From the IMG/VR virus record IMGVR_UViG_3300034069_000436, positions 1-41,085 of that record: a stretch of 41,085 nt of DNA. One strand, given 5' to 3'. Made by a program: the position numbers and the translations under genes. Shown here piece after piece: positions 7,944-27,214 of the stretch (within the stretch, counting starts at the first letter, position 1; each line of letters starts with the position of its first letter). The notes below the pieces were generated by a model. The model was not told the origin of the DNA, did not search any database, and saw only the letters and a program-made list of their open reading frames with translations. Source of the stretch: a virus.

Positions 7944-8063
7944 TCAACCCCTCGCCCTCCACATCCGCAAATAAAATCCCGCCGCCTCCTCGCTGATCTC
8001 ATATTTCACCGCCAACCGCGCCGGATCAGCCCGCGACAGGCTCCCGGCCGGCGCGCGGGTCAT
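7944..8063 (-). CDS. Possible 39-aa HTH-like peptide
   Basis: My translation: MTRAPAGSLSRADPARLAVKYEISEEAAGFYLRMWRARG. No clear SD, so this is tentative. Confidence 0.3.
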   Translation of the reverse strand: MTRAPAGSLSRADPARLAVKYEISEEAAGFYLRMWRARG

Positions 8064-8091
8064 GGCGAGGATGAAGGCTTGGAGTCCGGTG

Positions 8092-8316
8092 TCACCCGCC
8101 TGCATCGTTGCTCCCCAGAGCCATCACCCGCTTCCGCCAGCGCCTGGCAGTCCGCTCGGGTATCCTCGCCAACCACGCCGCCTCCTTCAGTGTGGCGCTG
8201 GCCTCGACGTAGGCCATGAAGAGAGCGGCCTGTTCGTCGGTGTTGATGACGCGAGTCTGGGTTGCGTAATGCCATGCCGATGGCTTTGACTGACCTGCCG
8301 CTTGCCCCACCCTCAC
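8092..8316 (-). CDS. Small helix-turn-helix DNA-binding protein
   Basis: C-terminal part of track ORF 8092..8439: TDEQAALFMAYVEASATLKEAAWLARIPERTARRWRKRV is HTH-like. Start chosen at the GTG at 8316, preceded by AGAGGtagggaa. The start is uncertain. Confidence 0.5.
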   Translation of the reverse strand: MRVGQAAGQSKPSAWHYATQTRVINTDEQAALFMAYVEASATLKEAAWLARIPERTARRWRKRVMALGSNDAGG

Positions 8317-8337
8317 TTCCCTACCTCTGTCGCGCGC

Positions 8338-8461
8338 TGCCACACTGCCCCACCACCCCACCTCCCTACGGGAGGGGGAGGTGGTGGTGGGGCGGTTTGG
8401 CAGTATTGGATTGCCCCACCTGCCACACCTTTGCCACACCCGCTATTTTCAAGGTGTGGCA
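8338..8461. promoter_or_regulatory. Repeat-rich intergenic region downstream of the primase-helicase gene: 8-mer iterons plus a GC-only hairpin
   Basis: TGCCACAC occurs at 8338-8345, 8421-8428 and 8432-8439, with an inverted GTGTGGCA at 8454-8461. TGCCACACC (8432-8440) and GGTGTGGCA (8453-8461) form a 9-bp inverted repeat with a 12-nt spacer abutting the primase stop. There is an imperfect C-run/G-run hairpin at 8348-8392 (ccccaccaccccacctccc / gggagggggaggtggtggtgggg). Confidence 0.4.
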
Positions 8462-10814: not shown

Positions 10815-11384
10815 CTATCCTAGCGTCACACCTTCGGCAAGCACGGCATTGACCGCCATAAGCATTACGATCTCGCATCCACGCGGCGAGCGAGCGCCCT
10901 TTCTTAGATTGCACGTCCGATGCATCGCCACCCGGTTGTTGCGATCTTTTCCGCCTAGGACACGGGGTAGCACGTGATCGAACGTTGCACGCAAGGGGTC
11001 GTCATGACTGCCCCCAAACTCAAGCTGTTCTCCACACGCCGCGCAACGCATGGCTTGGGCCTTTGCAATGCGGAACAGCAGTGACTTATGGGCTAGGTAA
11101 CGTTGGCGCTTTCGAGCCGGCATTATGGAGCAGATGGGCTTTTTGCCGCCGGCTTCCCAAGCCGCATAGCGCGCGGCGTCTCGTTCATCCGACAAGCCAA
11201 GCGAACGAGCCTCGGACTTTGTCAGGTTGGTAAGGCTATAGTCCAGCGGTGAAACGACAATAGCTGGGCGCTTAGAAAGGCTATTTACATACGAACGACT
11301 TTTCGGTTGGCGCGGTTTGGCGCGAAGTAGCACCGTCATACGCTTAGCGCACTCTTCCAAGGTCATTGGTCCTTGGCCTTTCAT
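10815..11384 (-). CDS. HNH endonuclease
   Basis: 189 aa. CAACGEQL...ATFDHVLPRVLGGKDRNNRVAMHRTCNLRKG gives the Cys pair plus the H-N-H core. Confidence 0.8.
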   Translation of the reverse strand: MKGQGPMTLEECAKRMTVLLRAKPRQPKSRSYVNSLSKRPAIVVSPLDYSLTNLTKSEARSLGLSDERDAARYAAWEAGGKKPICSIMPARKRQRYLAHKSLLFRIAKAQAMRCAACGEQLEFGGSHDDPLRATFDHVLPRVLGGKDRNNRVAMHRTCNLRKGARSPRGCEIVMLMAVNAVLAEGVTLG

Positions 11385-11822
11385 TCATTTGGTCCTTACA
11401 GGCGCACCGATCTCAGCCAGCCACCTGACCGCGCTTTCCGGCACAAAGAAACACGCCACTGGCCAGCCCATGTCATGCAGCCGATTGCCAAAGTCGATTT
11501 GATTCTGGCTTAGCGTGCCGGCGCGGCCAGACTTATCGTAACCCTTCATCTCAATTAGAGCGTGTCCATGGTTCCACCACAGCGCGAGGTCAAACGCGCC
11601 TGACTTGATGCCTTCTGCCTTGGCTTGACGTGGGTTGCGCTTACCAGCGTTGGGGATTGCGCGCACCTCGATTGAGGGTGCGCAGTGGCGAAGGAGACTG
11701 AGGAGCGTAGTCTGTCGGGGCAGCTCGGCGATGTGTTTGCGCCCGTCCGGTGGCTCGACCGGGAAGCGTGGTTCTGCGGTCAGGGTCTCGTCTAGGGCAG
11801 CGAGGATTGTTGCAAGGGTCAT
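11385..11822 (-). CDS. VRR-NUC domain nuclease
   Basis: 145 aa. GAFDLALWWNHGHALIEMKGYDKSG...LSQNQIDF gives a PD-(D/E)xK core typical of VRR-NUC. Confidence 0.75.
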   Translation of the reverse strand: MTLATILAALDETLTAEPRFPVEPPDGRKHIAELPRQTTLLSLLRHCAPSIEVRAIPNAGKRNPRQAKAEGIKSGAFDLALWWNHGHALIEMKGYDKSGRAGTLSQNQIDFGNRLHDMGWPVACFFVPESAVRWLAEIGAPVRTK

Positions 11823-12010
11823 GCGCGATCATCACGATTAAGCCGCATCAACCGATGATACCCCGCCACCTTCAACGACACGCCGTACCGCGCTGCCAAG
11901 TCCGCATCGGTGATCGCCCGCACTGCTTCAATCCGAGCGGTCGCGCAGAACGTCAGGCAGTCGCGCGCGCGGTCGGCGCCTGTGCGTTTGGGGTTGTCGT
12001 AGCGGGTCAT
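11819..12010 (-). CDS. Hypothetical protein
   Basis: 63 aa, with 4-nt overlaps to both neighbours. Confidence 0.5.
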   Translation of the reverse strand: MTRYDNPKRTGADRARDCLTFCATARIEAVRAITDADLAARYGVSLKVAGYHRLMRLNRDDRA

Positions 12011-12333
12011 GCGTAGACCTTGAGGGGGCGCTTTTTCGCCACCTTACGATCAGCGCCGGTGTCAGTCAGGACGATCTTGCGGAAATGGGTCGACTGATAG
12101 CCGTTACGTCGCCCGATAAAATACAGCATAAACATACTCGCGCCCTTGCGTGGGCCTTCTGACGACGCCTTATAAGCTACATCCGATACCATCAACCTAT
12201 CGCCAACAAGAGGAGGGGCTTCGCTATATAGTTCGAAATGACCTACACACTCAGCCATATCCCCCGGCTTCCAGTCGACCGACGTAGGCCCGAAGTGCAC
12301 AGGCTTACGGCGCCTGCGAAACGGCCAGATCAT
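12007..12333 (-). CDS. Hypothetical protein
   Basis: 108 aa ORF, coupled to the downstream gene. Confidence 0.55.
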   Translation of the reverse strand: MIWPFRRRRKPVHFGPTSVDWKPGDMAECVGHFELYSEAPPLVGDRLMVSDVAYKASSEGPRKGASMFMLYFIGRRNGYQSTHFRKIVLTDTGADRKVAKKRPLKVYA

Positions 12334-12346
12334 GCCATATCTCCCA

Positions 12347-12976
12347 TCACAACAACCCCGAGGAAACGCCGCCCAAGGTCTGCGTCACCACTCGATCCGG
12401 CACCCGGAACGTATCGACCAGAGCCGCGCCCATCCGCACCTTGGCGAGCTGCTTATCGAACGCCGACATATCGGCCTCAATAATCCGCCGCGCCTCCGCT
12501 CTGCCGTACATCGCGCCGATGCGGTAGAACTCGTCGTGACGATCCGGCGGGCACCAAGCCATGCGAGCTGCGCGTTTTACCCGCGCTACCTCGCTGATAG
12601 TTCGACCGGCTTTTGCCCGGCTTTCCGCGCTCCGTGTGGTCTCAATGTTACGCGCACCAACACGACGGCCAGACTCTCGCATTTTGTTCACGATTTCGGG
12701 GTTGGCGGCCCTGGTGGCCTTGCCTTTTATGCCGCCGGCCTTGCGAATGGTGGCGCGTTCAGGCGCTTGGTTGAACGCCGTCATCCGCACCTTCATAAGC
12801 TCTCGATACGCCGGGTCTTTCGCCTTCGCCTGATTGTCGCACGCGCGGCACATGCCTTTGCTACGCCAACTGATCGGCTTATCGCAGCCGCCGCACGTGC
12901 GCGACGATCGGCAGGTCAGACACACCGGGTCCTTGGCCGTAGCGCCCATGACGCGTTCACAGGACGTGCAGATCAT
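12347..12976 (-). CDS. Cys-rich zinc-ribbon / basic DNA-binding-like protein
   Basis: 209 aa. The N-terminus has four CxxC-type pairs (CTSCE..CLTCR..CGGCD..CRACD), followed by a basic K/R-rich middle region. Confidence 0.6.
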   Translation of the reverse strand: MICTSCERVMGATAKDPVCLTCRSSRTCGGCDKPISWRSKGMCRACDNQAKAKDPAYRELMKVRMTAFNQAPERATIRKAGGIKGKATRAANPEIVNKMRESGRRVGARNIETTRSAESRAKAGRTISEVARVKRAARMAWCPPDRHDEFYRIGAMYGRAEARRIIEADMSAFDKQLAKVRMGAALVDTFRVPDRVVTQTLGGVSSGLL

Positions 12977-13062
12977 TCACACCATCCTTCGTTGTCGGAA
13001 CGGTCGAATATGAGGAATGCGGCCAAAGCGGCGATGGCAATCAGGGCGGACAGGATGCGCAC
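12973..13062 (-). CDS. Possible 29-aa single-pass membrane peptide
   Basis: My translation from the GTG at 13062: (M)RILSALIAIAALAAFLIFDRSDNEGWCE. It starts 2 nt after the Cro-like stop and ends in an ATGA overlap with the next gene. Confidence 0.3.
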   Translation of the reverse strand: MRILSALIAIAALAAFLIFDRSDNEGWCE

Positions 13063-13063
13063 C

Positions 13064-13258
13064 CTATCGGTCCACCATCATTTCAGGCATCGGCTTACCT
13101 GCAACGGCGCCGAGCATTGCGATCGTATTACGATGCAGCTTCGGGACGCCGTTGTAGCGCCAATAGGAAAACGCCTGCCGGCTGATCCGCATGTGCGCCC
13201 TGATTGGAGCGAATCCCAGCCGATCAAGAGCCGCTGCGTCGGGATGATGCTGTTTCAT
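13064..13258 (-). CDS. Cro/YdaS-like HTH transcriptional regulator
   Basis: Only the last 64 aa of track ORF 13064..14086 look real: MKQHHPDAAALDRLGFAPIRAHMRISRQAFSYWRYNGVPKLHRNTIAMLGAVAGKPMPEMMVDR. It is the first gene of the leftward block and faces the divergent control region. Confidence 0.65.
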   Translation of the reverse strand: MKQHHPDAAALDRLGFAPIRAHMRISRQAFSYWRYNGVPKLHRNTIAMLGAVAGKPMPEMMVDR

Positions 13259-13363
13259 GAAACGCGATATGACACGCCAAAATAATTGACGCAAGAGGGT
13301 TGACGCGCAAAGCCTTTGACGGCAGATAGGGGCAGCAGGCCACCCCGGCTTTGGGAGAGCACC
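13259..13363. promoter_or_regulatory. Divergent early control region with three TTGACG direct repeats
   Basis: TTGACG occurs at 13286-13291, 13300-13305 and 13316-13321 (spacing 14 and 16 nt), in an AT-richer stretch (aaaataattgac). SD GGGAGAG lies before the GTG at 13364. The Cro-like ATG at 13258 has almost no leader. Confidence 0.45.
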
Positions 13364-14143
13364 GTGACGACAACCGCACCGACGATCGATCAAGACCGCT
13401 TGGCGGAGGTTGCAAAGCGCGGCCTCGATAGCGGCGCACATCATGGCTTCGAAGATGGCATGTGCGCGATGGAAGCTGCCAGCTACATCGCTGGTGAGCC
13501 CTGGAGCGACCATCCCAAGTGCGTCAGCCCGGTCATCGCAGCGTTCCTTCGTAGCTGGAATGACAGCCTGCCAACCGATGAGCGTAACGCGTTGATAACG
13601 CCGGACGTGATCGCTATAACGATCGGCACGCGCGGGTCTGCCAAGCTGGAAGAGCGCCGCTCGCTGATGGCAGCCGACTGGCTGGTCCGCACGCATACCG
13701 TGGCATGGCTCCGGCTCGCGAAGCTGGACAAGCAAGCCGACGCGTTGGAAGGTTTGCCCGAAATTACGGCAATGGCGCAGGTGCCGCCAATGCGGGCACC
13801 TATTGAGGGTGTGCGTGCTGACGCAAACGCTGCCTGGGACGCTGCCGGGGCCGCTGCCGGGGCCGCTGCCAGGGACGCTGCCAGGGCCGCTGCCAGGGAC
13901 GCTGCCAGGGCCGCTGCCAGGGACGCTGCCAGGGCCGCTGCCAGGGCCGCTGCCTGGGCCGCTGCCGGGGCCGCTGCCGGGGCCGCTGCCAGGGCCGCTG
14001 CCGGGGCCGCTGCCGGGGCCGCTGCCTGGGACGCTGCCGGGGACGCTGCCAGGGCCGCGCTCATGCCGACCCGTCTGACTCTGCAAGCATCTGCTGGCGA
14101 TCTGATCCGCCGCATGTGCGCACTGACCGAGGTGGCCTCGTAA
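13364..14143 (+). CDS. Early protein with a globular N-terminal domain and a (A-A-W/G/R-D/A)19 repeat C-terminal half
   Basis: Track ORF 13316..14143. Start preferred at the GTG at 13364 after GGGAGAGcacc. The N-domain motif is CAMEAASYIAGEPWSDHPKCVSPVIAAFLRSWNDSLPTDERNAL. The C-terminal half is encoded by the 12-bp array. Confidence 0.7.
   Translation: MTTTAPTIDQDRLAEVAKRGLDSGAHHGFEDGMCAMEAASYIAGEPWSDHPKCVSPVIAAFLRSWNDSLPTDERNALITPDVIAITIGTRGSAKLEERRSLMAADWLVRTHTVAWLRLAKLDKQADALEGLPEITAMAQVPPMRAPIEGVRADANAAWDAAGAAAGAAARDAARAAARDAARAAARDAARAAARAAAWAAAGAAAGAAARAAAGAAAGAAAWDAAGDAARAALMPTRLTLQASAGDLIRRMCALTEVAS
13829..14056 (+). repeat. In-frame 12-bp tandem array, 19 units
   Basis: The unit is GCTGCC[T/G/A]GGG[A/C]C. 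I counted the units one by one: 13829-13840 ... 14045-14056. Only 2 of the 12 positions vary. Confidence 0.95.
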
Positions 14144-14415
14144 TGTACGCCGCCCCCATTACCCCCGTCGACCAGCCCAGCGTAGAGGACCGTATCCGCG
14201 CCGTCCGCGCCGCGCAGGAGGCTGACCGCCAGATCACCCCGACGCAGTTCATGCGTCAGATCGACGCCGAGGCTGATCGGCTGTTCCGTGGCCGCACGAC
14301 CCGAATTGTTCGGGGGGGCGGGCAAGTGACCCGCCGTGAGCATCACGCCGTGTCGTTCCTGCTGGCGATCGGCTTTGCACTGTCGTTCTGTGCGATGTGG
14401 GCGGTGCTGGCATGA
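14143..14415 (+). CDS. Hypothetical protein with a C-terminal TM segment
   Basis: Track ORF 14116..14415 trimmed to MYAAPITPV (TAATG overlap with the upstream stop). The C-terminus AVSFLLAIGFALSFCAMWAVLA is hydrophobic. Confidence 0.55.
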   Translation: MYAAPITPVDQPSVEDRIRAVRAAQEADRQITPTQFMRQIDAEADRLFRGRTTRIVRGGGQVTRREHHAVSFLLAIGFALSFCAMWAVLA

Positions 14416-14627
14416 GCCACACTCCCGGACCATGGGCGGTCAGCAAGCAAAAGGCCCGGCGCGTCACCGCCAGCGGCGTCATCATCTGCAACGCCGTCCT
14501 CCGCAATCAGGGTGGTCCAAAGCACAAGGCGTACCTGAAGGACGAGCATGAGGCGGAGGCCAATGCCAATCTGATCGCTGCTGCGCCTGACTTGGTGGAA
14601 GTCGCCGGAGATGCCTTGTCTGGCTAG
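14412..14627 (+). CDS. Hypothetical small phage protein (GPW ... ANANLIAAAPDL motif family)
   Basis: MSHTPGPWAV...EAEANANLIAAAPDLVEVAG, with an ATGA overlap upstream. I recognise this motif pair from many small phage proteins of unknown function. Confidence 0.6.
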   Translation: MSHTPGPWAVSKQKARRVTASGVIICNAVLRNQGGPKHKAYLKDEHEAEANANLIAAAPDLVEVAGDALSG

Positions 14628-14725
14628 CGCTATATTCGTCAGCAGCATGGTGATTTGCCCGGCGTCGGCTGGGCACGAGTTGAGCAAGCGCTCACCGCCG
14701 CGCTCGCTAAAGCCCGAGGTGAGGC

Positions 14726-14947
14726 ATGAATCCCTTCGACGCCCTAAATCGCTCAGGGCTGGCGATGCTGTCCGAAGCTGCGCCTATCGAAACCGACGCT
14801 CTGGTCGCTTTCTGGCAAGACCCGGAGCCGTTCTACGCCGAGCAGCGCGAGATGCGTGCGCAGGCCAGTGTAGCGCATGCCGCAGCCATGACTCCCTTGA
14901 ACGCCAAACAAGCCGCTCGTTGGGCGGATGAGGAGAAGATAGCATGA
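14726..14947 (+). CDS. Hypothetical protein
   Basis: 73 aa, with SD GAGGTGAGG upstream. Confidence 0.55.
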   Translation: MNPFDALNRSGLAMLSEAAPIETDALVAFWQDPEPFYAEQREMRAQASVAHAAAMTPLNAKQAARWADEEKIA

Positions 14948-15234
14948 GCGCTCCCAACATCGCATGCGTCCTTGCTGACGCGGTTGGTCCGCTTCTTGCC
15001 GGCCTAACCGACGCCATGGGCTGCAAAGCCGACGTGTCTTGGTTTTCCGCCTCCGATCGCTGTCATGCGTTCTGGAGCGTTAACCTGCACGATCATGATC
15101 GATGCTTTAGCGGCAACGACATTGACAGCCCGAGCCGCGCCTTGATGAAAGCTAATGCCCAGCGGCAGGAATGGGAGGAGCAGCAGACTCGTGGCCAGAA
15201 ATTGTTGGCCCAGGACGCACAGGTGTCGGCGTGA
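14944..15234 (+). CDS. Hypothetical protein
   Basis: 96 aa, with an ATGA overlap upstream. Confidence 0.55.
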   Translation: MSAPNIACVLADAVGPLLAGLTDAMGCKADVSWFSASDRCHAFWSVNLHDHDRCFSGNDIDSPSRALMKANAQRQEWEEQQTRGQKLLAQDAQVSA

Positions 15235-15920
15235 ATAAGCCTCACATTACCTACCACGCCGACTTTGACCAAGGTTCGGAGCAATGGCTGGCGGCGCGTT
15301 GCGGGCTGCTCACCGCGAGCGAGATGAAGCTGATCCTTACGCCGACGCTCAAGGTCTCCAACAACGATAAGACACGCCAGCACGTTTATGAGATCGCTGG
15401 CCAGCGTATCACCGGATATGTCGAACCGCACTACATTGGCGACGACATGCTGCGTGGTCACGAAGACGAGGTGCGCGCACGGCTTGCCTATGCCGAAAAG
15501 TTTGGCGAGGTCACGGAGTGCGGGCTGGTCACGAATGACAGTTTCGGCTTTACCATAGGCTATTCGCCCGACGCTCTTGTTGGCAATGGCGGCCTGATCG
15601 AGTGTAAGTCGCGTCGGCAAAAGTATCAGGTGCAAACGATTATTGCTGGCGTGCCGGACGAGCACGTTTTGCAGCTTCAGACCGGTTTGTTGGTCACCGA
15701 GCGAGCGTGGATTGACTACGTGTCATACTCGGGCGGAATGCCGATGGCGGTGATCCGCGTCGAATCTGACGCAGAAATGCAGACAGCTATTGTTGCGGCG
15801 GCGACTGACTTTGAGCAGCGCGTTACCGATGCGATCAGTGATTACCAATCCGCCCTTTCGTCTGGCCGCCTTCGCTGGTGCCCGACCGAGCGCGTTATCG
15901 AACAGGAAATGCATCTATGA
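15231..15920 (+). CDS. YqaJ-like (lambda Exo-type PD-(D/E)xK) recombination exonuclease
   Basis: Track ORF 15171..15920. Start at the GTG at 15231 (GTGA overlap). Motifs: FDQGSEQWLAARCGLLTASEM, GYSPDALV, LIECKS. Confidence 0.8.
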   Translation: MNKPHITYHADFDQGSEQWLAARCGLLTASEMKLILTPTLKVSNNDKTRQHVYEIAGQRITGYVEPHYIGDDMLRGHEDEVRARLAYAEKFGEVTECGLVTNDSFGFTIGYSPDALVGNGGLIECKSRRQKYQVQTIIAGVPDEHVLQLQTGLLVTERAWIDYVSYSGGMPMAVIRVESDAEMQTAIVAAATDFEQRVTDAISDYQSALSSGRLRWCPTERVIEQEMHL

Positions 15921-16561
15921 GTGACATGTCTGCCGTCATTGTCGCCAAGAGCGATCAGTGGAACGCTGACGATTTCGTCAACGGCGCCCGCACCTTCACC
16001 ATTGAGGACGTTTCGATCCGCCCCGGCACAGAACAGCCGGTGCAGATCAAGCTCGCCGGCAGCAACAAGTTCTTCCGTCCGTGCAAGACCGTCAGCCGTG
16101 TCTTGGTCGCGGCTTGGGGCGCGGATGCCAATGCATATCGTGGCCGATCGCTAACGCTCTACACCGACCCGGCGGTTCTCTGGGGTGGCATGAAGGTGGG
16201 TGGCATCCGGGTCAGCCACCTGTCAGACCTGACGCAGCCGCTTGTCATCGCCCTTCAGGAAAAGAAGGGTAGCCGCAAGATGACGACCGTGCAGCCGCTC
16301 AAGGTCGAGTCCGCGCAGTCTAACGGCAGCGACTTGCTCACGATCGACCAAGCGCGCGCGGATATCACCAACGCGGCAGACCTGGGCGATTTGCGCCGGT
16401 TGTGGTCGCGCCGGGCAATGGCGCCGTTCCGCGATGAACTTCAGGAAGCGCTCGACATTCGCAAGGAAGAACTGTCCAACATCGACGCTCGCGAAGGCCG
16501 TTCCGACGACCAACATGGCGACCAACACGACGGCGAGACCATTGAGGAAAACGGCCAATGA
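15917..16561 (+). CDS. Hypothetical protein. Its position suggests an ssDNA-binding or annealing partner of the exonuclease, but this is unproven.
   Basis: Track ORF 15878..16561 trimmed to MSDMSAVIVAKSDQWNADDF (ATGA overlap). Beta-rich N-terminal half and acidic tail. The functional suggestion rests on synteny only. Confidence 0.35.
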   Translation: MSDMSAVIVAKSDQWNADDFVNGARTFTIEDVSIRPGTEQPVQIKLAGSNKFFRPCKTVSRVLVAAWGADANAYRGRSLTLYTDPAVLWGGMKVGGIRVSHLSDLTQPLVIALQEKKGSRKMTTVQPLKVESAQSNGSDLLTIDQARADITNAADLGDLRRLWSRRAMAPFRDELQEALDIRKEELSNIDAREGRSDDQHGDQHDGETIEENGQ

Positions 16562-16707
16562 CCGGCAGCTACCGAGACATCCTCGCCCGCCGCGAGCGCA
16601 AACGCCCGGACGGGACGTCTGTCTGGCCGCTGCGCAACAGCGACAATCCCAGCCGGTTTCGGACCGATGCTGGGTCTCAGGTAAGCGGGGAGAGCGCACG
16701 TGGCTGA
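16558..16707 (+). CDS. Hypothetical 49-aa protein (below the track cutoff)
   Basis: My translation: MTGSYRDILARRERKRPDGTSVWPLRNSDNPSRFRTDAGSQVSGESARG. ATGA overlap upstream, and an 8-nt overlap with the next GTG start. Confidence 0.4.
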   Translation: MTGSYRDILARRERKRPDGTSVWPLRNSDNPSRFRTDAGSQVSGESARG

Positions 16708-17239
16708 CCTGCTGTCCGCACTTCGCGAGCCGCCCGTCGTGGGTCGGTTCTACATGGTCCCGGTCATCCGCGACTACCCGCTGGGTGGCAAGCTCGGCAC
16801 CTGGCCTGTGATCGGGCCGAAACATTCGGACATCGATTTCCTCAATTTCCGAGACGAGCATTATCATGTCGATGCGCGGTTCGTCACCGCTGCCCAAGAG
16901 CGGGCCATCACTGTTGGCGGACAACGTAGCTTAGAGGCGGTTGTCGGCAGTTGGCCGCTTGCATCTTACAGGCACGAGTTGCCGAAGGGCAGGCCCGCAC
17001 TGGCTCGGCTGAAGTGTCGCCGCAGCGCTTATGGCTATGCCTATGGTCATCAGCCGGCAATCAAGAAGCTGCGTGAGCATTACGGCGACCCGGCCGAGCC
17101 TATCCGCCTCGCCGATAGACGCCTGCTCTGCCCGCACCGCAAGGCCGATCTGTCCAGCTTTGCTCCGGGCGATGATGGCCTCGTGATTTGCCCGCTTCAC
17201 GGCCTGCGCGTGCGTTGTGCTCAAGGCCAGACCTCATGA
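16700..17239 (+). CDS. Protein with a C-terminal Rieske-type [2Fe-2S] ligand motif
   Basis: 179 aa. CPH-x17-CPLH (CPHRKADLSSFAPGDDGLVICPLH) fits the Rieske pattern CxH-x(15-17)-CxxH. Confidence 0.55.
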   Translation: MADLLSALREPPVVGRFYMVPVIRDYPLGGKLGTWPVIGPKHSDIDFLNFRDEHYHVDARFVTAAQERAITVGGQRSLEAVVGSWPLASYRHELPKGRPALARLKCRRSAYGYAYGHQPAIKKLREHYGDPAEPIRLADRRLLCPHRKADLSSFAPGDDGLVICPLHGLRVRCAQGQTS

Positions 17240-17268
17240 CCCGTCAACCACAACCAAGGGAGGGCGCG

Positions 17269-17955
17269 ATGCCCGTTGAGAAGTTCGAAGTCCGCAACCG
17301 CTGGTCCAGTCGCATCCAGTTCACTGCCGAGATCACCTGCGCGCCCGACGCCACGATCGGCGTGAAGTTGGGGCTGGCAGTAAGGTGGGCGAGAAAGAGC
17401 GGTGCCGTCCTGCGCGGTGCCGACCTGAGCGGTGCCGTCCTGCGCGACGCCGTCCTGCGCGACGCCGTCCTGCGCGACGCCGACCTGCGCGACGCCGTCC
17501 TGCGCGACGCCGACCTGAGCGGTGCCGTCCTGCGCGACGCCGTCCTGCGCGACGCCGACCTGAGCGGTGCCGTCCTGCGCGACGCCGACCTGAGCGGTGC
17601 CGTCCTGCGCGGTGCCGTCCTGCGCGGTGCCGACTGGCTCCCGCGTATCACCAACATTCACCAGTCGATCTACAATGCCGCTCGCCAGGAAGGCGCCCTC
17701 GACATGGCATCGTGGCACCGTAATGGCTACTGCGGCACGACGCATTGCCGGGCTGGATGGGCGGTGGTGCTGACCGGCGAGGGCGGCCGGGTGCTTGAGG
17801 GCATCTACGGCACCAACGCCGCTGCTGCGCTGATTTATCAGGCCAGCGACCCAAAGCTGGAGCGTATCCCTAACTGGATCGCGTCAAACCAAGACGCGCT
17901 GGACGACATGCGGATGAAGGCGGAAGCGGAAGCTGCCTCTGCGGTCTCCTCATGA
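17269..17955 (+). CDS. Pentapeptide-repeat protein with a Cys/His-containing C-terminal domain
   Basis: Track ORF 17188..17955. Start at MPVEKFEV, preceded by AGGGAGGgcgcg. It carries 16 consecutive [G/D]A[V/D]L[R/S] pentapeptides. The C-domain motif is WHRNGYCGTTHCRAGWAVVL. Confidence 0.8.
   Translation: MPVEKFEVRNRWSSRIQFTAEITCAPDATIGVKLGLAVRWARKSGAVLRGADLSGAVLRDAVLRDAVLRDADLRDAVLRDADLSGAVLRDAVLRDADLSGAVLRDADLSGAVLRGAVLRGADWLPRITNIHQSIYNAARQEGALDMASWHRNGYCGTTHCRAGWAVVLTGEGGRVLEGIYGTNAAAALIYQASDPKLERIPNWIASNQDALDDMRMKAEAEAASAVSS
17401..17637 (+). repeat. In-frame 15-bp tandem array, about 16 units
   Basis: Units are GGTGCCGTCCTGCGC, GACGCCGTCCTGCGC, GACGCCGACCTGCGC, GACGCCGACCTGAGC and GGTGCCGACCTGAGC, counted consecutively from 17401. 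Several adjacent units are 15/15 identical. Confidence 0.95.
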
Positions 17956-17987
17956 CCCCTCCCATGGATAGAGGCGAGGGGCGGGAG
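17952..17987 (+). repeat. Junction module copy J1
   Basis: atgacccctcccATGGATAGAGGCGAGGGGCGGGAG. The last 24 nt are identical to J2 18791-18814. Confidence 0.9.
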
Positions 17988-18758
17988 ACGCGCTCCGGCA
18001 TCATTCGTGACATTGATGGCGTGCTGCACGTCGTCGCGCTCTCCGGTGGTCACGACAGCACCATCCTGTCATTGCTGCTGAACGAGCGCGAGCCGCGTCC
18101 GTACCTTCATGTCTGTACGCCGACTGGCGATGAGTTGCCGGCAATGTTTGAGCATTGGAACCGGCTTAGCGGGATGCTCGGCAGCCGTATTATGCCGATC
18201 ATGGCGGGAAGCCTCAAAGGCGTCATCAGCCAAAAGGGGTGTTTGCCCAATTTCCGCCGGCGGTTCTGCACCCGCGTTTTGAAGATTGAGCCTTTCCGCG
18301 CTTTCATGGCTGCACAGGCCAAGGATGGGCCGGTCGTCTCCTATGTGGGTCTGCGCGCTGATGAGCCGGGACGGGCTGGCGGCGCTTACGACAACATTCC
18401 CGGCGTCACAATTCGTTACCCTTTACGCGAATGGGGCATGGGCGAGGACGAGGTTCAGGCCGGCTTGGCTGAGCGCGGCGTCAAGTGCCCCGATCGGACT
18501 GACTGCGGTCTGTGCTATCACCAGCGCATCGGCGAGTGGTGGGAATTGTGGAAATACCATCCCGACCGGTTTGATGATGGGGTAACGATTGAACAGCGCT
18601 ACGGGGAAACGTTTCGCACGCCGGGGCGCGATAGCTGGCCCACGTCGCTGAAGGAAATGGGCGAACGCTTTGAGGCCGGCGACAAGCCGAACACCAGCCT
18701 CAATCGCATGGCTCGGGAGCGTCAGCAAACGGGCTCTTGTCGCGTGTGTTCGCTATGA
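17952..18758 (+). CDS. PP-loop ATP pyrophosphatase, PAPS-reductase-like family
   Basis: 268 aa. VVALSGGHDSTILSLLL is the SGGxDS PP-loop. ATGA overlaps at both ends. Confidence 0.75.
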   Translation: MTPPMDRGEGRETRSGIIRDIDGVLHVVALSGGHDSTILSLLLNEREPRPYLHVCTPTGDELPAMFEHWNRLSGMLGSRIMPIMAGSLKGVISQKGCLPNFRRRFCTRVLKIEPFRAFMAAQAKDGPVVSYVGLRADEPGRAGGAYDNIPGVTIRYPLREWGMGEDEVQAGLAERGVKCPDRTDCGLCYHQRIGEWWELWKYHPDRFDDGVTIEQRYGETFRTPGRDSWPTSLKEMGERFEAGDKPNTSLNRMARERQQTGSCRVCSL

Positions 18759-18814
18759 CCATCCCCACCCATTCAGCAGGATCAGACACCATGGATAGAG
18801 GCGAGGGGCGGGAG
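18755..18814 (+). repeat. Junction module copy J2 (longest form)
   Basis: atgaccatccccacccattcagcaggatcagacaccatggatagaggcgaggggcgggag. It shares its 5' block with J3 and its 3' block with J1. Confidence 0.9.
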
Positions 18815-19606
18815 GGTGCGCAGCTTCGTGTGCTGTCGCTGTTTGCTGGCATCGGTGGCTTCGACTTGGGTCTTGAGCGGACCGGCGAATTTCGCACGGT
18901 TGCCTTTTGCGAGATCGATAAACGTTGCCGGCACGTGCTGGCGAAAAACTGGCCTGGAGTGCCGATCTATGAAGACGTGCTCGACCTTAGTGCCCAGCAT
19001 CTCGCCGCAGCAGGAATTGCCATTGATGTCATCTGCGGCGGGTTCCCATGCCAGAACATCAGTCTTGCCGGACGAATGGAGGGGATTGGTGGCGTCAAGT
19101 CTGGACTATGGCAGCACTACCTTCGTCTCGTCGAAGAAGTCCGTCCGCGCTGGGTCGTTGTCGAAAACAGTCCCGTCCTTCGCTCTCGCGGATTGGAAAT
19201 CATGCTCGGGCAGCTTGCTGCGATCGGGTATGATGCGGAGTGGCACTGTCTACCCGTTAATGCCTTTGGCGCGCCTCACCGGCGGGATCGCCTCTGGATT
19301 GTGGCCTACCCCGCTGGCGACCGAGACGGGCTTCCGCCGCTCCAGATTTCCACAGGGTGGGACCAGTCTAAGCACCGCGCTTGGTGGGATACCGAACCCG
19401 CTGTGGGTCGAGTGGTTGATGCGGTTTCCGCCGAACCACACCGCCTTGCCGAGCTCGGAAACGCCGTCTGTCCGGTAATTCCGGAGGAGATTGGCCGGGC
19501 AATTCTAGACGATGCGTTTGACCGCGCTGTCCGGCGTCCTTGCCCTGGTTGTGACCGACCGAACTACGACCATCATTGGAATTGCGCCGCGCAGGTCGCC
19601 GCATGA
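18755..19606 (+). CDS. DNA (cytosine-5)-methyltransferase, compact form
   Basis: Motif I LSLFAGIGGFDLG. Motif IV GGFPCQNIS. Motif VI VVENSP. Motif VIII HRRDRLWIV. Motif X GNAVCP. The variable region is very short. An alternative start is at 18791 (MDRGEGRE, AGGA 10 nt upstream). Confidence 0.85.
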   Translation: MTIPTHSAGSDTMDRGEGREGAQLRVLSLFAGIGGFDLGLERTGEFRTVAFCEIDKRCRHVLAKNWPGVPIYEDVLDLSAQHLAAAGIAIDVICGGFPCQNISLAGRMEGIGGVKSGLWQHYLRLVEEVRPRWVVVENSPVLRSRGLEIMLGQLAAIGYDAEWHCLPVNAFGAPHRRDRLWIVAYPAGDRDGLPPLQISTGWDQSKHRAWWDTEPAVGRVVDAVSAEPHRLAELGNAVCPVIPEEIGRAILDDAFDRAVRRPCPGCDRPNYDHHWNCAAQVAA

Positions 19607-19658
19607 CTCCCACCCATCTAGCAGGATCAGACAACATGGTAGAGCGAGAGGCGCGAGA
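19603..19658 (+). repeat. Junction module copy J3
   Basis: atgactcccacccatctagcaggatcagacaacatggtagagcgagaggcgcgagag. It aligns to J2 with a few substitutions and two small indels. Confidence 0.85.
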
Positions 19659-20166
19659 GATCTTGGCGCAAGCTTATGAGCGGGCGAACCTGACCTGCCC
19701 GGCCACCGACATTCGTGCTGGCAACAAGGTAGATTGGGTCAGGGAAGCGGTTGCCTTGGACGCTATCTCCGCCGCCCTCCACCCCACCCAGCCTGTAGGT
19801 GAGCCCGAAGGATGGCGGGAGGCCCACTCTGACGATCTGGCCGTTGATAGGTTCGCGGCAAAGATGAAAGCGAAGCTGGCGCAGGCTCGCGACAAAGGTC
19901 GCGGTGGCTGGGACGACCCGGAGCAGTGTGGCCCAACCATTCTGCTGCCAATGCTGCACGATCACCTCGCTAAGGGCGACCCGGTGGACGTGGCGAATTT
20001 TGCTATGATGCTGGATCACTACGGCGCGTCCACAGCCCCTTTCCCCACGTCGAACGTACAACGAGCCCGCGTCAAATGTGATCGGCTAGGTTGCGATTGG
20101 GCCAACGGTCGTGCCGCCCTTGCATCCCTGCCCACCAATGATGCCACGGAGACATTAAATGGATAG
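19603..20166 (+). CDS. Hypothetical protein. The middle region faintly resembles MazG-like all-alpha NTP-PPase helices but lacks the acidic metal motif.
   Basis: Track ORF 19576..20166 trimmed to MTPTHLAGSDNM (ATGA overlap). ...KLAQARDKGRGGWDD...HDHLAKGDPVDVANFAMMLDH. Confidence 0.5.
   Translation: MTPTHLAGSDNMVEREAREILAQAYERANLTCPATDIRAGNKVDWVREAVALDAISAALHPTQPVGEPEGWREAHSDDLAVDRFAAKMKAKLAQARDKGRGGWDDPEQCGPTILLPMLHDHLAKGDPVDVANFAMMLDHYGASTAPFPTSNVQRARVKCDRLGCDWANGRAALASLPTNDATETLNG
20128..20143 (+). repeat. DR1 left copy (ctgcccaccaatgatg)
   Basis: Perfect 16-nt match to 20417-20432. It encodes LPTND in the 3' end of gene 19603..20166. Confidence 0.9.
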
Positions 20167-20452
20167 CCAATGGTCGGAAATTGCCGCCAACGGTATCATT
20201 CACGCTGCTACAATGGCTTTTCAGGCTTGGGAGCAAAACTCATACGAGTTCACGCGTCCTTGCGTCCTGTTCAAGCCCGTATTGTCAAGAGACGGAAATC
20301 AGTGGTGCGCTTTGCTAGGCGACAATCTGCAAGAAGGTATCGCAGGTTTTGGAAACACGCCTTATCTTGCAATGTATGCTTTTGACAAAGCGTTCAATAC
20401 AGAAACCATCGTCCCTCTGCCCACCAATGATGAGGATCGCAGCCGTGGGTGA
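20159..20452 (+). CDS. Hypothetical protein in a low-GC cassette
   Basis: 97 aa. It looks visibly AT-richer than its neighbours (by eye near 50% GC). It is bracketed by the two DR1 copies. Confidence 0.6.
   Translation: MDSQWSEIAANGIIHAATMAFQAWEQNSYEFTRPCVLFKPVLSRDGNQWCALLGDNLQEGIAGFGNTPYLAMYAFDKAFNTETIVPLPTNDEDRSRG
20417..20432 (+). repeat. DR1 right copy
   Basis: Perfect 16-nt match to 20128-20143. It encodes LPTND in the 3' end of gene 20159..20452. Confidence 0.9.
20432..20452 (+). repeat. DR2 left copy (gaggatcgcagccgtgggtga)
   Basis: 18/21 match to 20688-20708. Contains the upstream stop and an embedded GTG start. Confidence 0.85.
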
Positions 20453-20708
20453 TTATCAGCTTTTTGTGTACCCGCCGTTTCGTGCTGCGCCGCGTGTGCT
20501 GATGCACGTCGATGATAGCGGAGAGCTTCCAGACGGCCGGAGGTGCGGCCATTTCGTCTGCCGCAAGTGCGGTTATGCCGAATGGCGAGCGGCGGGACTA
20601 ACCAACCAGCGACGCGGACTGCCTTGCCCCACTTGTAACGGCAAAGGCCAAAAAGTTCGCGCCCTCCACCCCAGCACCGCAGGACAGGAGGATCAGAGCC
20701 GTGGTTGA
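20445..20708 (+). CDS. Zinc-ribbon protein
   Basis: Track ORF 20349..20708. The GTG at 20445 is chosen by analogy with the paralogous DR2 junction at 20701. ATGs at 20427/20430 are alternatives. Motifs: CRKCGYAEW...CPTCNGKG. Confidence 0.55.
   Translation: MGDYQLFVYPPFRAAPRVLMHVDDSGELPDGRRCGHFVCRKCGYAEWRAAGLTNQRRGLPCPTCNGKGQKVRALHPSTAGQEDQSRG
20688..20708 (+). repeat. DR2 right copy (gaggatcagagccgtggttga)
   Basis: 18/21 match to 20432-20452. Contains the stop of the Zn-ribbon gene and the GTG start of gene 20701. Confidence 0.85.
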
Positions 20709-21174
20709 GAGCGAGTTCCAATCCATCGTGGGGCAAGAGGCGATCGACTTGCTTGTCGATCTGTGCGGGCCGGGCTCATCGCAATCCGGAACCAACTGTC
20801 GGGTGGTCGAGGATCACTTGAAGCAGTTTGCCCGCGCCATTGCCCCCAAGCCTCCCGCCGTCAGCAGCGAGAGCGCAGGGGTGGAGGATGATCGGTTGTT
20901 CATTGCCGCTGCGTTGGATTTTTCGAACGCCGGTCCTAACCACTTTAGCCCTGGCTTCCTTCAGTACCGCGATCTTGCACTTGCCGCCTCCCGCGTAAGT
21001 CTCGCCGCCCAGCCCACCACAGAGCAGCCGGGCGGGGTGACGCGGGAGCGCGAGCGCTGCGCCCGGATCGCGGAGAACTTCACCCGCGCCAGCCGGGATT
21101 GGGTGCCTGACAGCCTGTGGGACAACATCACCAAGGGCATTGCTGCGGCCATTCGAGGGGAGGGTGGCAAGTGA
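20701..21174 (+). CDS. Hypothetical protein
   Basis: 157 aa, with a GTG start inside DR2. Confidence 0.55.
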   Translation: MVESEFQSIVGQEAIDLLVDLCGPGSSQSGTNCRVVEDHLKQFARAIAPKPPAVSSESAGVEDDRLFIAAALDFSNAGPNHFSPGFLQYRDLALAASRVSLAAQPTTEQPGGVTRERERCARIAENFTRASRDWVPDSLWDNITKGIAAAIRGEGGK

Positions 21175-21314
21175 CTCTAGCGGTATACCATCATCCCTGC
21201 GGCAAGCGAGAAGTCTTGCTCCCGTGGGAGACGATGCAGCCCTGCGCCGCGTGTGACCTTCACCGCAGAATGGTCCGTTGGGGTCTCGTTAAACGCTGGG
21301 GTGAACGCGCATGA
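21171..21314 (+). CDS. Hypothetical 47-aa Cys-containing protein
   Basis: GTG at 21171 (GTGA overlap, GGGGAGGGTGG upstream): (M)TLAVYHHPCGKREVLLPWETMQPCAACDLHRRMVRWGLVKRWGERA. Confidence 0.45.
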   Translation: MTLAVYHHPCGKREVLLPWETMQPCAACDLHRRMVRWGLVKRWGERA

Positions 21315-21667
21315 CCGACCTCAACCAGATCGCGGAGCTGCGGGGGCTGGTGGCGAAGGCGACCCAAGAAAACTTGGCGGATGGCGGCCGGTATTTCGCC
21401 GACAGCTACACCGACCTTACCCGCTGCCGACATGAAGAGATCGGCGAGTACCAAAACCGGCACGACGGCCCTGCCATCGAAGCGCTTTGGAATGCTCGTC
21501 ACGCCCTGCTGGATGCAGCGGAGAGGGTGGGGCGGCTGGAGGAGGCGGTTCGTGCCTATTGCGACGCCTTCGATGCCGGCACTGGAACGGTCTATGTCGA
21601 GCCGCTGATGCGCTCCCTCCTCACCGACACCACCCATGACACCGCTGAACACGGAGAAGGGGAATGA
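21311..21667 (+). CDS. Hypothetical protein
   Basis: 118 aa, with an ATGA overlap upstream. Confidence 0.55.
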   Translation: MTDLNQIAELRGLVAKATQENLADGGRYFADSYTDLTRCRHEEIGEYQNRHDGPAIEALWNARHALLDAAERVGRLEEAVRAYCDAFDAGTGTVYVEPLMRSLLTDTTHDTAEHGEGE

Positions 21668-26683: not shown

Positions 26684-27214
26684 CTACGTCCTAAACCAAG
26701 TCTTGCGCTTTTGAATGTTGCGGATGGTATCTGCGCAAACGCTATACTTATTCGCGAGCGATGGCGCGCTGTTTCCGGCAGCGAGTGCAGCCCTTATTTC
26801 ATCAACGCTTTGCTGTGTAAGTTTCGCGAAAGGCGAGGTTTCACCATGATGAGGATTCGTGCCGTGGGCGTAGGCATCCGCGATGTTCTCCGCACGGGTG
26901 CCCCAACGTAGGTTTTCCGCTCTTGCGTTCCTGCGGTCTCCATCCTTGTGAAGCACCTCGCATCCTTGGGGCTTTTCTCCGTGAAAGGCGGTGCACACTA
27001 AAATGTGGACGGGCATGTTTTTGCGGACAAGGGTTGTGACATTAACAACGGGATAGCCGCGTGTGTATCCCGGCGACAGAAAGGTTCCTTTGCGGCGATA
27101 TCCCGGCAAGCTACGCACTCTGCCGTGAGAACTTACTTCATAGCTACCCTCGGCGCCCACTACCGGACGCCACTCTTCGCTGGTATAATCGGGGGTAGTC
27201 ATAGCGTGCTCCAT
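26684..27214 (-). CDS. Free-standing HNH homing endonuclease (NUMOD4 + HNH_3 + C-terminal HTH)
   Basis: Track ORF 26684..27409 trimmed to MEHAMTTPDY. Motifs: EEWRPVVGAEGSYEVSSHGRVRS, HKDGDRRNARAENLRWGT, SLANKYSVCADTIRNIQKRKTW. It looks lower in GC than the flanks, with a 145-bp non-coding leader at 27215-27359. Confidence 0.8.
   Translation of the reverse strand: MEHAMTTPDYTSEEWRPVVGAEGSYEVSSHGRVRSLPGYRRKGTFLSPGYTRGYPVVNVTTLVRKNMPVHILVCTAFHGEKPQGCEVLHKDGDRRNARAENLRWGTRAENIADAYAHGTNPHHGETSPFAKLTQQSVDEIRAALAAGNSAPSLANKYSVCADTIRNIQKRKTWFRT

Follow-up and report, generated by a model that had tools for sequence, protein, structure and literature searches.

In the pentapeptide-repeat proteins Qnr and MfpA the repeats are, as far as is known, degenerate and constant in number. 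Concerted evolution of coding minisatellites (VNTRs) is known from bacterial and fungal surface proteins, such as the streptococcal alpha C and Rib proteins and the Als proteins of Candida, in which in-frame, near-identical DNA units vary in copy number between close strains through slippage or unequal recombination. In the type III effectors SopA and NleL, which are HECT-like ligases, and PipB2, a pentapeptide solenoid is followed by a distinct functional domain, at the C-terminus, whose targets are host proteins.

The gene described here is carried by a ~41-kb podophage with an SU10-type portal (IMG/VR record IMGVR_UViG_3300034069_000436, positions 1 to 41,085; this whole stretch of 41,085 nucleotides is referred to as the window). 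Its product resembles Qnr, MfpA and AlbG/McbG in its tandem A(D/N)LXX repeats, presumed right-handed quadrilateral beta-helix, cytoplasmic location and similar size. In contrast to these proteins, it is extended by an N-terminal cap and by an unrelated C-terminal domain of ~100 aa and is near neutral, and, in contrast to Qnr and MfpA, its repeats are homogenised in their DNA and, among relatives, vary in number. Its scores are 10-fold under the family cut-offs (NCBIfam Qnr, 21.9 bits against 240; MfpA, 39.8 against 360; all Qnr subfamilies, at most 20 against 450-480), and membership of either family was rejected. The repeat part also weakly matches PDB entries 3naw and 3sqv and PipB2, and the protein shares with SopA/NleL and PipB2 the layout of a solenoid followed by a separate domain; unlike in those effectors, however, that domain is an unrelated, small helical one, the protein comes from a phage and shows no evidence of a secretion signal, and its array is a dynamic minisatellite. 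In comparison with alpha C/Rib and Als, the unit is only 15 bp long, the repeats of this intracellular phage protein fold into a solenoid instead of a long stalk on the surface, and each unit varies solely by switching between two states at each of three exposed residues. True family members are found among the phrog_31265 proteins of Ralstonia phages (RSK1 ORF34, RsoP1IDN gp4 and BHDT_So9 ORF31), which go by the name of 'putative pentapeptide repeat protein' and have the same three-part layout and C-terminal domain at 42-56% identity. The arrays of Higashivirus are degenerate (10.8-11.1/15, with mixed Ala codons), whereas that of the window is homogenised. The gene and its parts are as follows.

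17256..17264, + strand: Shine-Dalgarno-like AAGGGAGGG, ending 4 nt before the ATG at 17269 (putative, read from the sequence)
17269..17955, + strand: complete gene for a three-part pentapeptide-repeat protein, 228 aa plus stop (ORF list, sequence, Pfam, PHROG, GC3)
17269..17400, + strand: N-terminal cap, residues 1-44, beta-hairpin then helix, FEVRNRW..FTAEI..LGLAVRWA (AlphaFold, homologues)
17401..17640, + strand: coding minisatellite of 15 canonical and one degenerate 15-bp units, giving 16 pentapeptides (sequence, TRF, simulation, PDB matches)
17491..17580, + strand: perfect 2 x 45-bp tandem duplication of the three-unit block DAVLR-DADLS-GAVLR (59-bp exact repeat, TRF period 45)
17641..17952, + strand: conserved helical C-terminal domain, residues 125-228 (AlphaFold of the domain alone, homologues)
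17713..17760, + strand: signature motif W149-H150-x4-C155-G-T-T-H159-C160-R-A-G-W164 (77- and 65-sequence alignments)
17952..17955, + strand: ATGA overlap of the repeat-gene stop with the start of the downstream SspD-like/PAPS-reductase-like gene (sequence, ORF list)

The reading frame was matched by Pfam PF00805 at 86.6 bits against a cut-off of 20.2 (E 7.6e-25) and by phrog_31265 at E 9.3e-53 over residues 39-226 of 228, a span that takes in both the array and the C-terminal domain; GC3 in the frame of the gene was 0.79. An in-frame ATG at 17236, which overlaps the upstream ORF's stop codon, is an alternative start. Both flanking segments named in the initial annotation, N-terminal FEVRNRWSSRIQFTAEI and C-terminal WHRNGYCGTTHCRAGW, are present. 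AlphaFold modelled the cap at pLDDT 91-95 for residues 1-50, with strands at 3-10 and 16-23 and a helix at 30-43; the cap is common to most homologues and is also found in phrog_31567. When the full-length protein was modelled with the family alignment, the array was given a wrongly helical fold at pLDDT 42-66, for which the gaps in the alignment at that point are the probable cause. Because AlphaFold recovered no beta-helix, the fold of the array was read from its similarity to solved pentapeptide structures in the PDB, which it matches at up to 4e-39 (phmmer), and it is presumably a right-handed quadrilateral beta-helix with four repeats per coil and ~4 coils.

Modelling of the C-terminal domain alone gave five helices at pLDDT 87.9 and pTM 0.82. 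No Pfam or NCBIfam model matches this domain, sequence and profile searches of the PDB returned nothing significant, Foldseek against the PDB gave no neighbour (best E 5.4), and the sole return from BFVD was a 74-aa homologue. Within its ~80 aa, no nuclease, NTPase or membrane effector could be recognised. The columns of the motif WH..C.T.HCRAGW are invariant or nearly so in the two alignments of 77 and 65 sequences, and invariant M146, W149, H150, H159, C160, R161 and G163 are common to 76 homologues. The motif is a possible metal-binding or catalytic His/Cys cluster, and the roles of its residues are putative.

At the DNA level, the repeat block reported in the initial annotation is indeed present, as 15 units at 17401-17625 that match [G/D]A[V/D]L[R/S] in the frame of the 228-aa gene, followed by a 16th, degenerate unit, GADWL, at 17626-17640. 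The identity of neighbouring units noted there was also borne out, since the adjoining units at 17446/17461 and at 17596/17611 agree at 15/15 positions. The canonical units are of only five distinct kinds (6, 4, 3, 1 and 1 copies), and their differences are limited to columns 2 and 3 (GGT against GAC), 8 (T/A) and 13 (C/A). Every one of these differences alters an amino acid and purely synonymous differences amount to zero in the window array, in which the codons for Ala (GCC), Leu (CTG), Val (GTC), Arg (CGC), Ser (AGC) and Gly (GGT) are invariant; GGT has a share of only 16% among Gly codons in the other genes of the genome. TRF returned a period of 15 (14.9 copies) and a period of 45 (5 copies, 89% matches), and the longest exact direct repeat, of 59 bp, lies at 17484 and 17529 with an offset of 45. 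The corresponding 45-bp duplication at 17491-17580 is the latest visible expansion and the best substrate for slippage. In a scan of the window, the two-unit pattern occurred 15 times against 0.01 expected and was confined to the array.

Codon bias or peptide constraint was considered as the source of this identity, and the same peptide was back-translated 20,000 times with the codon usage of the genome. The simulated arrays held 13-15 distinct units with a mean pairwise identity of 9.6/15 (maximum 10.85), as against five units and 13.04 observed; codon bias thus cannot account for the near-identity and was ruled out. A simple-sequence contingency locus with phase-variable on/off expression was likewise rejected, since the unit of 15 bp is a multiple of three and changes in its number stay in frame, resulting in length variation rather than on/off switching.

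The initial annotation took the near-identity of the units as a sign of recent expansion or concerted evolution and suggested a comparison of array length in related phages, and the relatives agree with it on both counts. Forty-five distinct, independent arrays were homogenised, with a mean unit identity of 12-14/15, as against 8.8-11.8/15 in 11 degenerate arrays that served as an internal control. Pairs of units that encode the same peptide nearly always had the same DNA (61/61, 43/43 and 24/24, among others), and minor codon variants within arrays numbered 208 non-synonymous and 10 synonymous, all at i-1, i+1 and i+2. The Ala codon (GCC, GCT, GCG or GCA) and the Leu codon (CTG or CTC) were uniform within an array and different between arrays and lineages, a pattern of synonymous sites that argues for concerted evolution. 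Copy number was found to differ between near-identical alleles in three pairs of relatives. L007 and L011 share 429/429 flanking nucleotides and have 24 and 22 units in a different order, the isolates BHDT_So9 and DLDT_So2 share 534/534 flanking nucleotides and are one 45-bp block apart, and P0016 and P0017 are identical except for two units. This is the opposite of the invariant length and synonymously diverged units that the initial annotation had named as speaking against its view. Thus the arrays carry both marks of a coding minisatellite under concerted evolution, synonymous homogeneity within arrays with divergence between them and a copy number that changes between near-identical alleles, and these data support recent expansion and a variable coil number among relatives. 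Judging from these alleles, the array expands, shrinks and reshuffles much faster than the remainder of the gene.

The gene is a member of phrog_31265, a phage and prophage family defined by the cap, a pentapeptide array of highly variable length and the conserved helical C-terminal domain. Relatives were found at 26 loci on viral contigs and 94 in genomes, among them cultured isolates and assemblies at chromosome level, and many copies lie in bacterial chromosomes, presumably in prophages. Most of the 76 homologues of the C-terminal domain have the order cap, array and domain with fewer repeats, and a few are without the cap or the array. A profile search with the domain returned 1,766 representative clusters; among the best 150 of these, 96 have pentapeptide arrays (3-28 units), 13 are stand-alone domains and 41 have other N-termini, which include LRR-like, HEAT-like, hexapeptide-like and DUF4116-like repeats. 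Array length in relatives ranges from 0 to >35 units with no preference for multiples of four. The genomes of L007 and L011 are otherwise unrelated and share only this gene of ~860 bp. P0014, P0015, P0013 and P0020 have a near-identical C-terminal domain (one or two substitutions) and different arrays, and P0020 also a different cap, while L018-L026 have the same unit and different C-terminal domains. The gene is a horizontally mobile accessory gene. Matches to plasmids came to only three records, all phage-sized and non-mobilizable, and an association with plasmid leading regions was rejected. Full-text searches of the literature found no paper on the family, on its motif or on homogenised pentapeptide arrays in phages.

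In the window, the operon holds the repeat gene, a YqaJ exonuclease, the SspD-like gene and a C5 methyltransferase; the gene immediately downstream matches the SspD model of PADLOC at 2e-37, and the ATGA overlap suggests that it may be translationally coupled to the repeat gene. PADLOC gave no match for the repeat protein, and its assignment as a known anti-phage defence component was rejected. In the Autographiviridae phages of Ralstonia, the family gene is located in the early region, and on the contig of the closest relative (L118) a CI-like repressor immediately precedes it and Rad52 and SSB follow downstream; RecT-like genes were found near it in seven loci. No conserved neighbour or partner gene that would hint at a target was found across ~105 loci, for which ORF calling was crude in high-GC DNA. 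A promoter and terminator scan of 11500-21500 gave counts at shuffle level and was uninformative. From its position in the genome, an early or host-directed role for the gene is plausible.

Taken together, the data show a real in-frame coding minisatellite inside the gene for a three-module phage protein, and we consider it probable that its array evolves in concert. Units would be repeatedly duplicated, deleted and exchanged, by replication slippage or by unequal recombination between perfect 15-, 30- and 45-bp repeats, and, as each unit is five codons, every such event would keep the reading frame and add or remove a quarter-turn of the helix. Synonymous sites are evened out within an array and the inward-facing Ala (i-2) and Leu (i) are fixed, and what variation persists takes the form of two-state switches at three outward-facing residues (V/D at i-1, R/S at i+1 and G/D at i+2), which selection on the surface of the helix or on its charge balance may preserve. 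Since unrelated pentapeptide genes carry the same DNA unit, arrays also serve as recombination joints at which N- and C-terminal modules are swapped.

How the protein works can be put forward only tentatively, and we rate the following proposal as possible at somewhat less than even chances. The C-terminal domain would be the constant functional module, binding or catalytic, possibly through the putative His/Cys metal site, and the N-terminal solenoid an adjustable binding surface or spacer, the two acting in the cell on a host factor, probably in early infection or lysogeny, in host takeover or counter-defence. The fast turnover of the array would then be the outcome of an arms race. Constraints of folding or solubility could, instead of an arms race, explain the two-state surface pattern, and, as the family is also prophage-borne, a role in lysogen defence may apply.

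The initial annotation had proposed an early-expressed DNA mimic that inhibits gyrase or restriction enzymes. On this reading the pentapeptide helix would pose as B-form DNA and thereby shut down a host DNA enzyme, whether gyrase (the target of Qnr and MfpA), RecBCD or a restriction enzyme of type I, and the C-terminal domain would do no more than dimerise or stabilise the protein; we regard it as unlikely. While the array matches solved MfpA (7.3e-12) and QnrB1 (1.5e-4), the protein remains far under the cut-offs of both families, and while the array alone, with 14 acidic residues to 11 basic ones, is mildly acidic (pI 4.6), the protein as a whole is near neutral (pI 6.3, net charge about -1, calculated as -1.2), with Arg in 11 of the 16 units and Val common at the surface, a composition at odds with the strongly electronegative, DNA-like surface that is a trait of Qnr and MfpA. 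The place of the gene in early and recombination modules, where phages keep inhibitors of RecBCD and restriction, would suit a mimic, as would its neighbours, YqaJ here, Rad52/SSB in L118 and RecT-like genes elsewhere, but PADLOC gave no match, and an array of 0 to >35 units without regard to multiples of four is odd for a shape-matched mimic. Moreover, the same C-terminal domain stands alone or is joined to LRR, HEAT or hexapeptide arrays, which a generic binding scaffold fits better than DNA mimicry. None of the tests supported the proposal.

A prophage-encoded defence or exclusion factor, in which the array senses the proteins of competing phages in the manner of NLR-like sensor repeats and the C-terminal domain is the effector, also seems doubtful to us. 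Pentapeptide repeats are listed among NLR sensor repeats (bioRxiv 10.1101/2022.07.19.500537), and a fast-evolving repeat sensor with a constant domain is the typical layout of an immune receptor; the constant domain here, however, is only ~80 aa in size, shows none of the recognisable effector types named above and, like the rest of the protein, matches no PADLOC model. The many chromosomal copies, presumably prophages, and the rexAB-like position in L118, directly downstream of the CI-like repressor on the same strand, point to such a role, whereas the presence of the family in the early region of strictly lytic-type Autographiviridae speaks against it.

It is very improbable that the near-identical array, or its copy number and unit order, is an artefact of repeat collapse or mis-joining of short reads. 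Logan contigs of SRR23972087 match the window at 100% identity on either side of the array, ending at 17448 and resuming at 17582; they were the only other assemblies of the exact phage found, two contigs both broken in the array. The array edges (units 1-3 and 13-16) were thereby matched independently at 100%, while for the 133 bp in between, and so for the exact number of units, the evidence is the window's own assembly. Exact matches to the array flanks were absent from IMG/VR and JGI metagenomes, no near-DNA match to the window phage was found among GenBank phages, and no record of the exact protein was found. Short-read assemblies often break inside such arrays (L004/L015, L006, L013, L014, L016 and several Bakolyvirus records), and many public contigs and phage records end within them, so that some of the differences in length or order among relatives could be assembly errors. 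Against an artefact, all k-mers of the array are unique at k of at least 60, so that ordinary reads of at least 150 bp could resolve it; arrays L008, L009 and L010 are identical in three different metagenomes, which indicates that their assembly can be reproducible; similar arrays occur in genomes of cultured isolates and in chromosome-level assemblies (L043, L055, L067); and the reading frame, the fold periodicity and the flanking domains are all intact. Because such arrays break short-read assemblies, annotations have been shortened, with several public Ralstonia phage records breaking off within the gene; long-read confirmation is needed for the copy numbers found in databases, that of the window among them.

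Finally, the idea of a diversity-generating retroelement (DGR) target, in which a reverse transcriptase would write adenine-directed mutations from a template repeat into the array, is effectively refuted. By coincidence, the only three adenines of the DADLS unit (GAT GCC GAC CTG AGC) are exactly the three variable nucleotides, and each variable site toggles between A and one other base. However, the window has no second copy or template of the unit, the ORFs scanned include no reverse transcriptase, ~100 loci lack a conserved neighbouring gene, only two of the four possible states occur at each site, and the variation is spread over a tandem array instead of being gathered in one variable region.

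Pentapeptide-repeat proteins are usually seen as static scaffolds with degenerate repeats, and here a large phage and prophage family of them has arrays that act like in-frame minisatellites, probably under concerted evolution. The rate of array change in phage populations, the tuning of host interaction by the length and surface of the helix, and the job of the widespread, unannotated WH..C.T.HCRAGW domain can now be tested. A bolder and rather speculative view, to which we give a low probability, is that the family is a modular phage toolkit in which a constant C-terminal effector is combined with interchangeable solenoid binders (mostly pentapeptide, but also LRR, HEAT or hexapeptide), of which the pentapeptide version is diversified by recombination between its repeats. 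If this were true, new binding surfaces would arise without a dedicated enzyme, from changes in length and from the two-state code carried by three exposed residues in each unit, and common DNA units would let phages swap binders and effectors. Recombination would in this way generate a repertoire for host targeting or counter-defence, loosely like cassette-built LRR receptors.

The pentapeptide-coding array, at 17401-17640 on the + strand, comprises 15 units of 15 bp encoding [G/D]A[V/D]L[R/S] and closes with a degenerate 16th unit, GADWL. The near-identity of these units described in the initial annotation was confirmed: five distinct canonical units are present, in 6, 4, 3, 1 and 1 copies, and two adjacent pairs are identical at 15/15 positions. 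Differences between units are confined to columns 2 and 3 (GGT versus GAC), 8 (T/A) and 13 (C/A), and every one of them changes an amino acid, none being purely synonymous. Glycine is encoded throughout the array by GGT, a minor Gly codon (16%) in the other genes of the genome. Tandem Repeats Finder, run on the window, found periods of 15 and, at a higher order, 45 in the array; an exact internal repeat of 59 bp at an offset of 45, the longest present, reflects a perfect 2 x 45-bp duplication at 17491-17580. A two-unit pattern searched window-wide occurred 15 times against 0.01 expected, and in the array only. When the array peptide was back-translated with the genome's own codon usage in 20,000 trials, mean unit identity was 9.6/15 (maximum 10.85) with 13-15 distinct units, as against the observed 13.04 and 5. 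This excluded peptide constraint or codon bias as the cause, and the identity of the array DNA is thus not a by-product of either.

The only three adenines of the DADLS unit (GAT GCC GAC CTG AGC) are exactly the three variable nucleotides, and in the window and all homogenised arrays among loci L001-L115 of its relatives each variable nucleotide is either A or a single alternative base (A/G, A/T or A/C). This adenine pattern resembles a DGR signature, but the window has no template repeat and the ORFs scanned included no reverse transcriptase, and the match between adenines and variable sites may be a coincidence or the product of an unknown bias.

Two Logan contigs from SRR23972087 matched at 100% identity over 13997-17448 and 17582-19291, both stopping within the array. 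The array edges are therefore independently confirmed; for the 133 bp between them, and with these the precise number of units, the source is the window's own assembly. As all array k-mers are unique from k=60, 150-bp reads would be able to resolve it. Public contigs ending within the gene are numerous, and three Bakolyvirus records do so too. The deposited 'complete genome' records of Ralstonia phages Adzire, Simangalove and Elie (MT740725, MT740747 and MT740735) break off among the pentapeptide units; each has a truncated gene, of which a 258-nt C-terminal piece is all that is annotated (hypothetical protein). In the permuted record of phage Sarlave the gene is intact (315 aa). Some array-length differences among relatives may thus be artefacts; the array pattern holds also in isolates and chromosome-level assemblies (L043, L055 and L067).

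Using the C-terminal 108 aa of the repeat protein as query, 76 homologues of 71-189 aa were found, every one shorter than the window's protein. Their commonest plan is an N-terminal cap (FEVRNRW..FTAEI..LGLAVRWA), 0 to about 12 pentapeptides and the C-terminal domain. Relatives in IMG/VR contigs carry 13 to more than 27 units, and 94 loci came from GTDB genomes, among them cultured isolates and chromosome-level assemblies, of Alpha-, Beta- and Gammaproteobacteria and of further phyla. Three groups of cultured Ralstonia phages (Firingavirus RSK1, Higashivirus and Bakolyvirus) also have the gene, annotated at best as 'putative pentapeptide repeat protein'. Xanthomonas sp. NCPPB 1128 (NZ_LFME01000002.1) bears two identical copies, L043 and L044, about 37 kb apart on one contig, which may represent tandem or duplicated prophages; their array has 12 units, only 2 of them distinct, with identical DNA in 34/34 same-peptide pairs.

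All fetched loci having 7 units or more were compared: 45 distinct arrays were homogenised (mean unit identity 12-14/15) and 11 were degenerate (8.8-11.8/15). The latter, which include those of Higashivirus phages and chromosomal Reyranella copies, represent ordinary pentapeptide genes and were used as internal control. In homogenised arrays almost every pair of same-peptide units is identical in DNA (61/61 in L007, 43/43 in L003, 24/24 in the window). Synonymous codon choice is uniform inside one array and different between lineages: most arrays use GCC for alanine, L002 and L003 use GCT, L005 and the Bakolyviruses GCG, and L025 GCA; leucine is CTG or CTC, by array; and Asp at i+2 is GAC in the window and GAT in most other sampled arrays. 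This pattern is characteristic of concerted evolution. Inside arrays, minor codon variants were non-synonymous in 208 cases and synonymous in 10, and lay at i-1 (D, V, N, Y), i+1 (R, S and others) and i+2 (G, D). Ala is fixed at i-2 and Leu makes up 98% at i, a constancy due in part to the array finder, which required these residues. In the established pentapeptide fold, i-2 and i face inward and i-1, i+1 and i+2 outward. Unit counts modulo 4 showed no preference (16, 11, 10 and 8 arrays per class), so the relative rotation of cap and C-terminal domain appears unconstrained.

Among relatives, array length and order vary under identical flanks, in keeping with the variable coil number initially envisaged. 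Loci L007 and L011 are identical over 429/429 flanking nt, yet L007 has 24 units and L011 has 22, in another order; one 45-bp block of three units sets isolate BHDT_So9 apart from DLDT_So2, their 534 flanking nt being identical; proteins P0016 and P0017 differ in two units only; and Sarlave has at least 35 units against about 8 in Jenny, with the same flanks. Three different metagenomes (L008, L009 and L010) gave identical 21-unit arrays; reproducible assembly is therefore possible, and such arrays are not hypermutable over very short time scales. The genomes of L007 and L011 are otherwise unrelated, having only this gene (roughly 860 bp) in common, and the window is likewise mosaic with respect to L001, its closest viral-contig relative (84% aa identity). 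Near-identical C-terminal domains stand behind differing arrays, even behind a different cap, and the genes at L018-L026, whose C-terminal domains are unrelated, contain the same DNA unit. The repeat gene thus behaves as a mobile accessory cassette, in which the arrays plausibly act as recombination joints.

The window is a phage genome with an SU10-type portal and adaptor, terminase, scaffolding protein, primase-helicase and lysozyme-like gene, for which GenBank phages held no close DNA relative. Its features relevant here are as follows.

10815-11384, 26684-27409 and 37101-38435, - strand: two HNH endonuclease genes and a gene for a 444-aa GH10-like protein (domain matches)
13828-14058, + strand: another homogenised coding array, of 12-bp tandem units (19.2 copies, 91% matches), in ORF 13316-14143
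16700-17236, + strand: upstream 179-aa ORF, phrog_10072, with a weak Rieske [2Fe-2S]-like match
17269-17955, + strand: repeat gene, 228 aa, with a good ribosome-binding site and a stop overlapping the next start as ATGA
17952-18755, + strand: SspD-like gene (PADLOC SspD, 2e-37; phrog_424, PAPS reductase, 2.9e-29)
18737-19603, + strand: C5 cytosine methyltransferase (Pfam, 9.7e-40), following the SspD-like gene
31691-31832, - strand: 54-bp tandem repeat (2.6 copies, 65% matches), in ORF 31294-33240

The repeat protein matched PF00805 (7.6e-25) and, over residues 39-226, phrog_31265 (9e-53). Its + strand block also includes a YqaJ-type exonuclease, a phrog_11517 protein, the ORF with the Rieske-like C-terminus, the SspD-like gene and the C5 methyltransferase. 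The SspD-like gene, directly 3' and translationally coupled through the ATGA overlap, may form a phage DNA-modification module with the C5 methyltransferase. The Rieske-like match, unusual in a phage early-region gene, covers only the last 35 residues (E 1.5e-4, barely over the Pfam cut-off). The 12-bp array gives an uncharacterised phrog_3416 protein its four-residue units (AAR[D/A], AAG and AAW), again with few switching nucleotides (CC[A/G/T]GGG, G[A/C]C); Logan contig L117 begins within it, at 13997. The 648-aa ORF holding the 54-bp repeat had no family match. One HNH gene, directly downstream of the 1,019-aa ORF 27360-30419, combines NUMOD4 and HNH_3, typical of homing endonucleases, and the 444-aa protein, which lies among virion genes and matches glycosyl hydrolase family 10 (2.3e-19), may be a polysaccharide depolymerase associated with the tail.

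Searching with a profile confined to the C-terminal domain retrieved 1,766 representative clusters (E<=1e-3), the domain being C-terminal in all; this uncharacterised family is a large one. Among the best 150 clusters, 96 carry pentapeptide arrays (3-28 units), 13 the stand-alone domain and 41 other N-termini, including LRR-like, HEAT-like, hexapeptide-like and DUF4116-like repeats. The 76 homologues share invariant M146, W149, H150, H159, C160, R161 and G163 and near-invariant C155, T157, T158 and W164. The domain is confidently predicted as a five-helix bundle (pLDDT 87.9, pTM 0.82) with a low-confidence loop around C155-C160 that would fit an unmodelled metal. It had no fold neighbour in the PDB, no PDB match by sequence or profile search, and no matching Pfam or NCBIfam model.

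No paper dealing with the repeat-protein family turned up in literature searches. Tentatively, and at somewhat less than even odds, the constant C-terminal domain would be the working module, possibly acting through a His/Cys metal or catalytic site, and the array an adjustable binding surface or spacer aimed at a host factor. The initial annotation had considered it plausible that an early-expressed, DNA-mimic-like helix inhibits host gyrase, restriction enzymes or other DNA-binding defences. This went unsupported and is unlikely, since Qnr and MfpA scores fall about ten-fold under the cut-off, the protein is near neutral with Arg in 11/16 units, array length is unconstrained and other solenoids can replace the array in relatives. 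A part in prophage defence seems equally doubtful. PADLOC gave no match for the repeat protein, no conserved partner gene was found across the relatives' loci, and only three plasmid records matched, all phage-sized. Gene position offers soft hints to function: the gene lies within the early region in Autographiviridae and adjoins recombination and DNA-modification genes in the window. The closest homologue, P0001 (L118, Logan SRR18762560 contig, 8001-8950), has a short array of about 7 units; its gene is flanked by a CI-like repressor (HTH plus Peptidase_S24), immediately upstream, and a DUF6197 gene, with Rad52 and SSB downstream, where lambdoid phages have accessory genes of lysogen-expressed or delayed-early type. 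The remaining probability falls to functions outside these readings.

The recent expansion or concerted evolution first suggested for the window's array is thus supported and extends, through the 45 homogenised arrays, their codon uniformity and array turnover, to a family-wide property. The repeat gene is a variant of pentapeptide-repeat proteins and coding minisatellites, joined to an uncharacterised domain.
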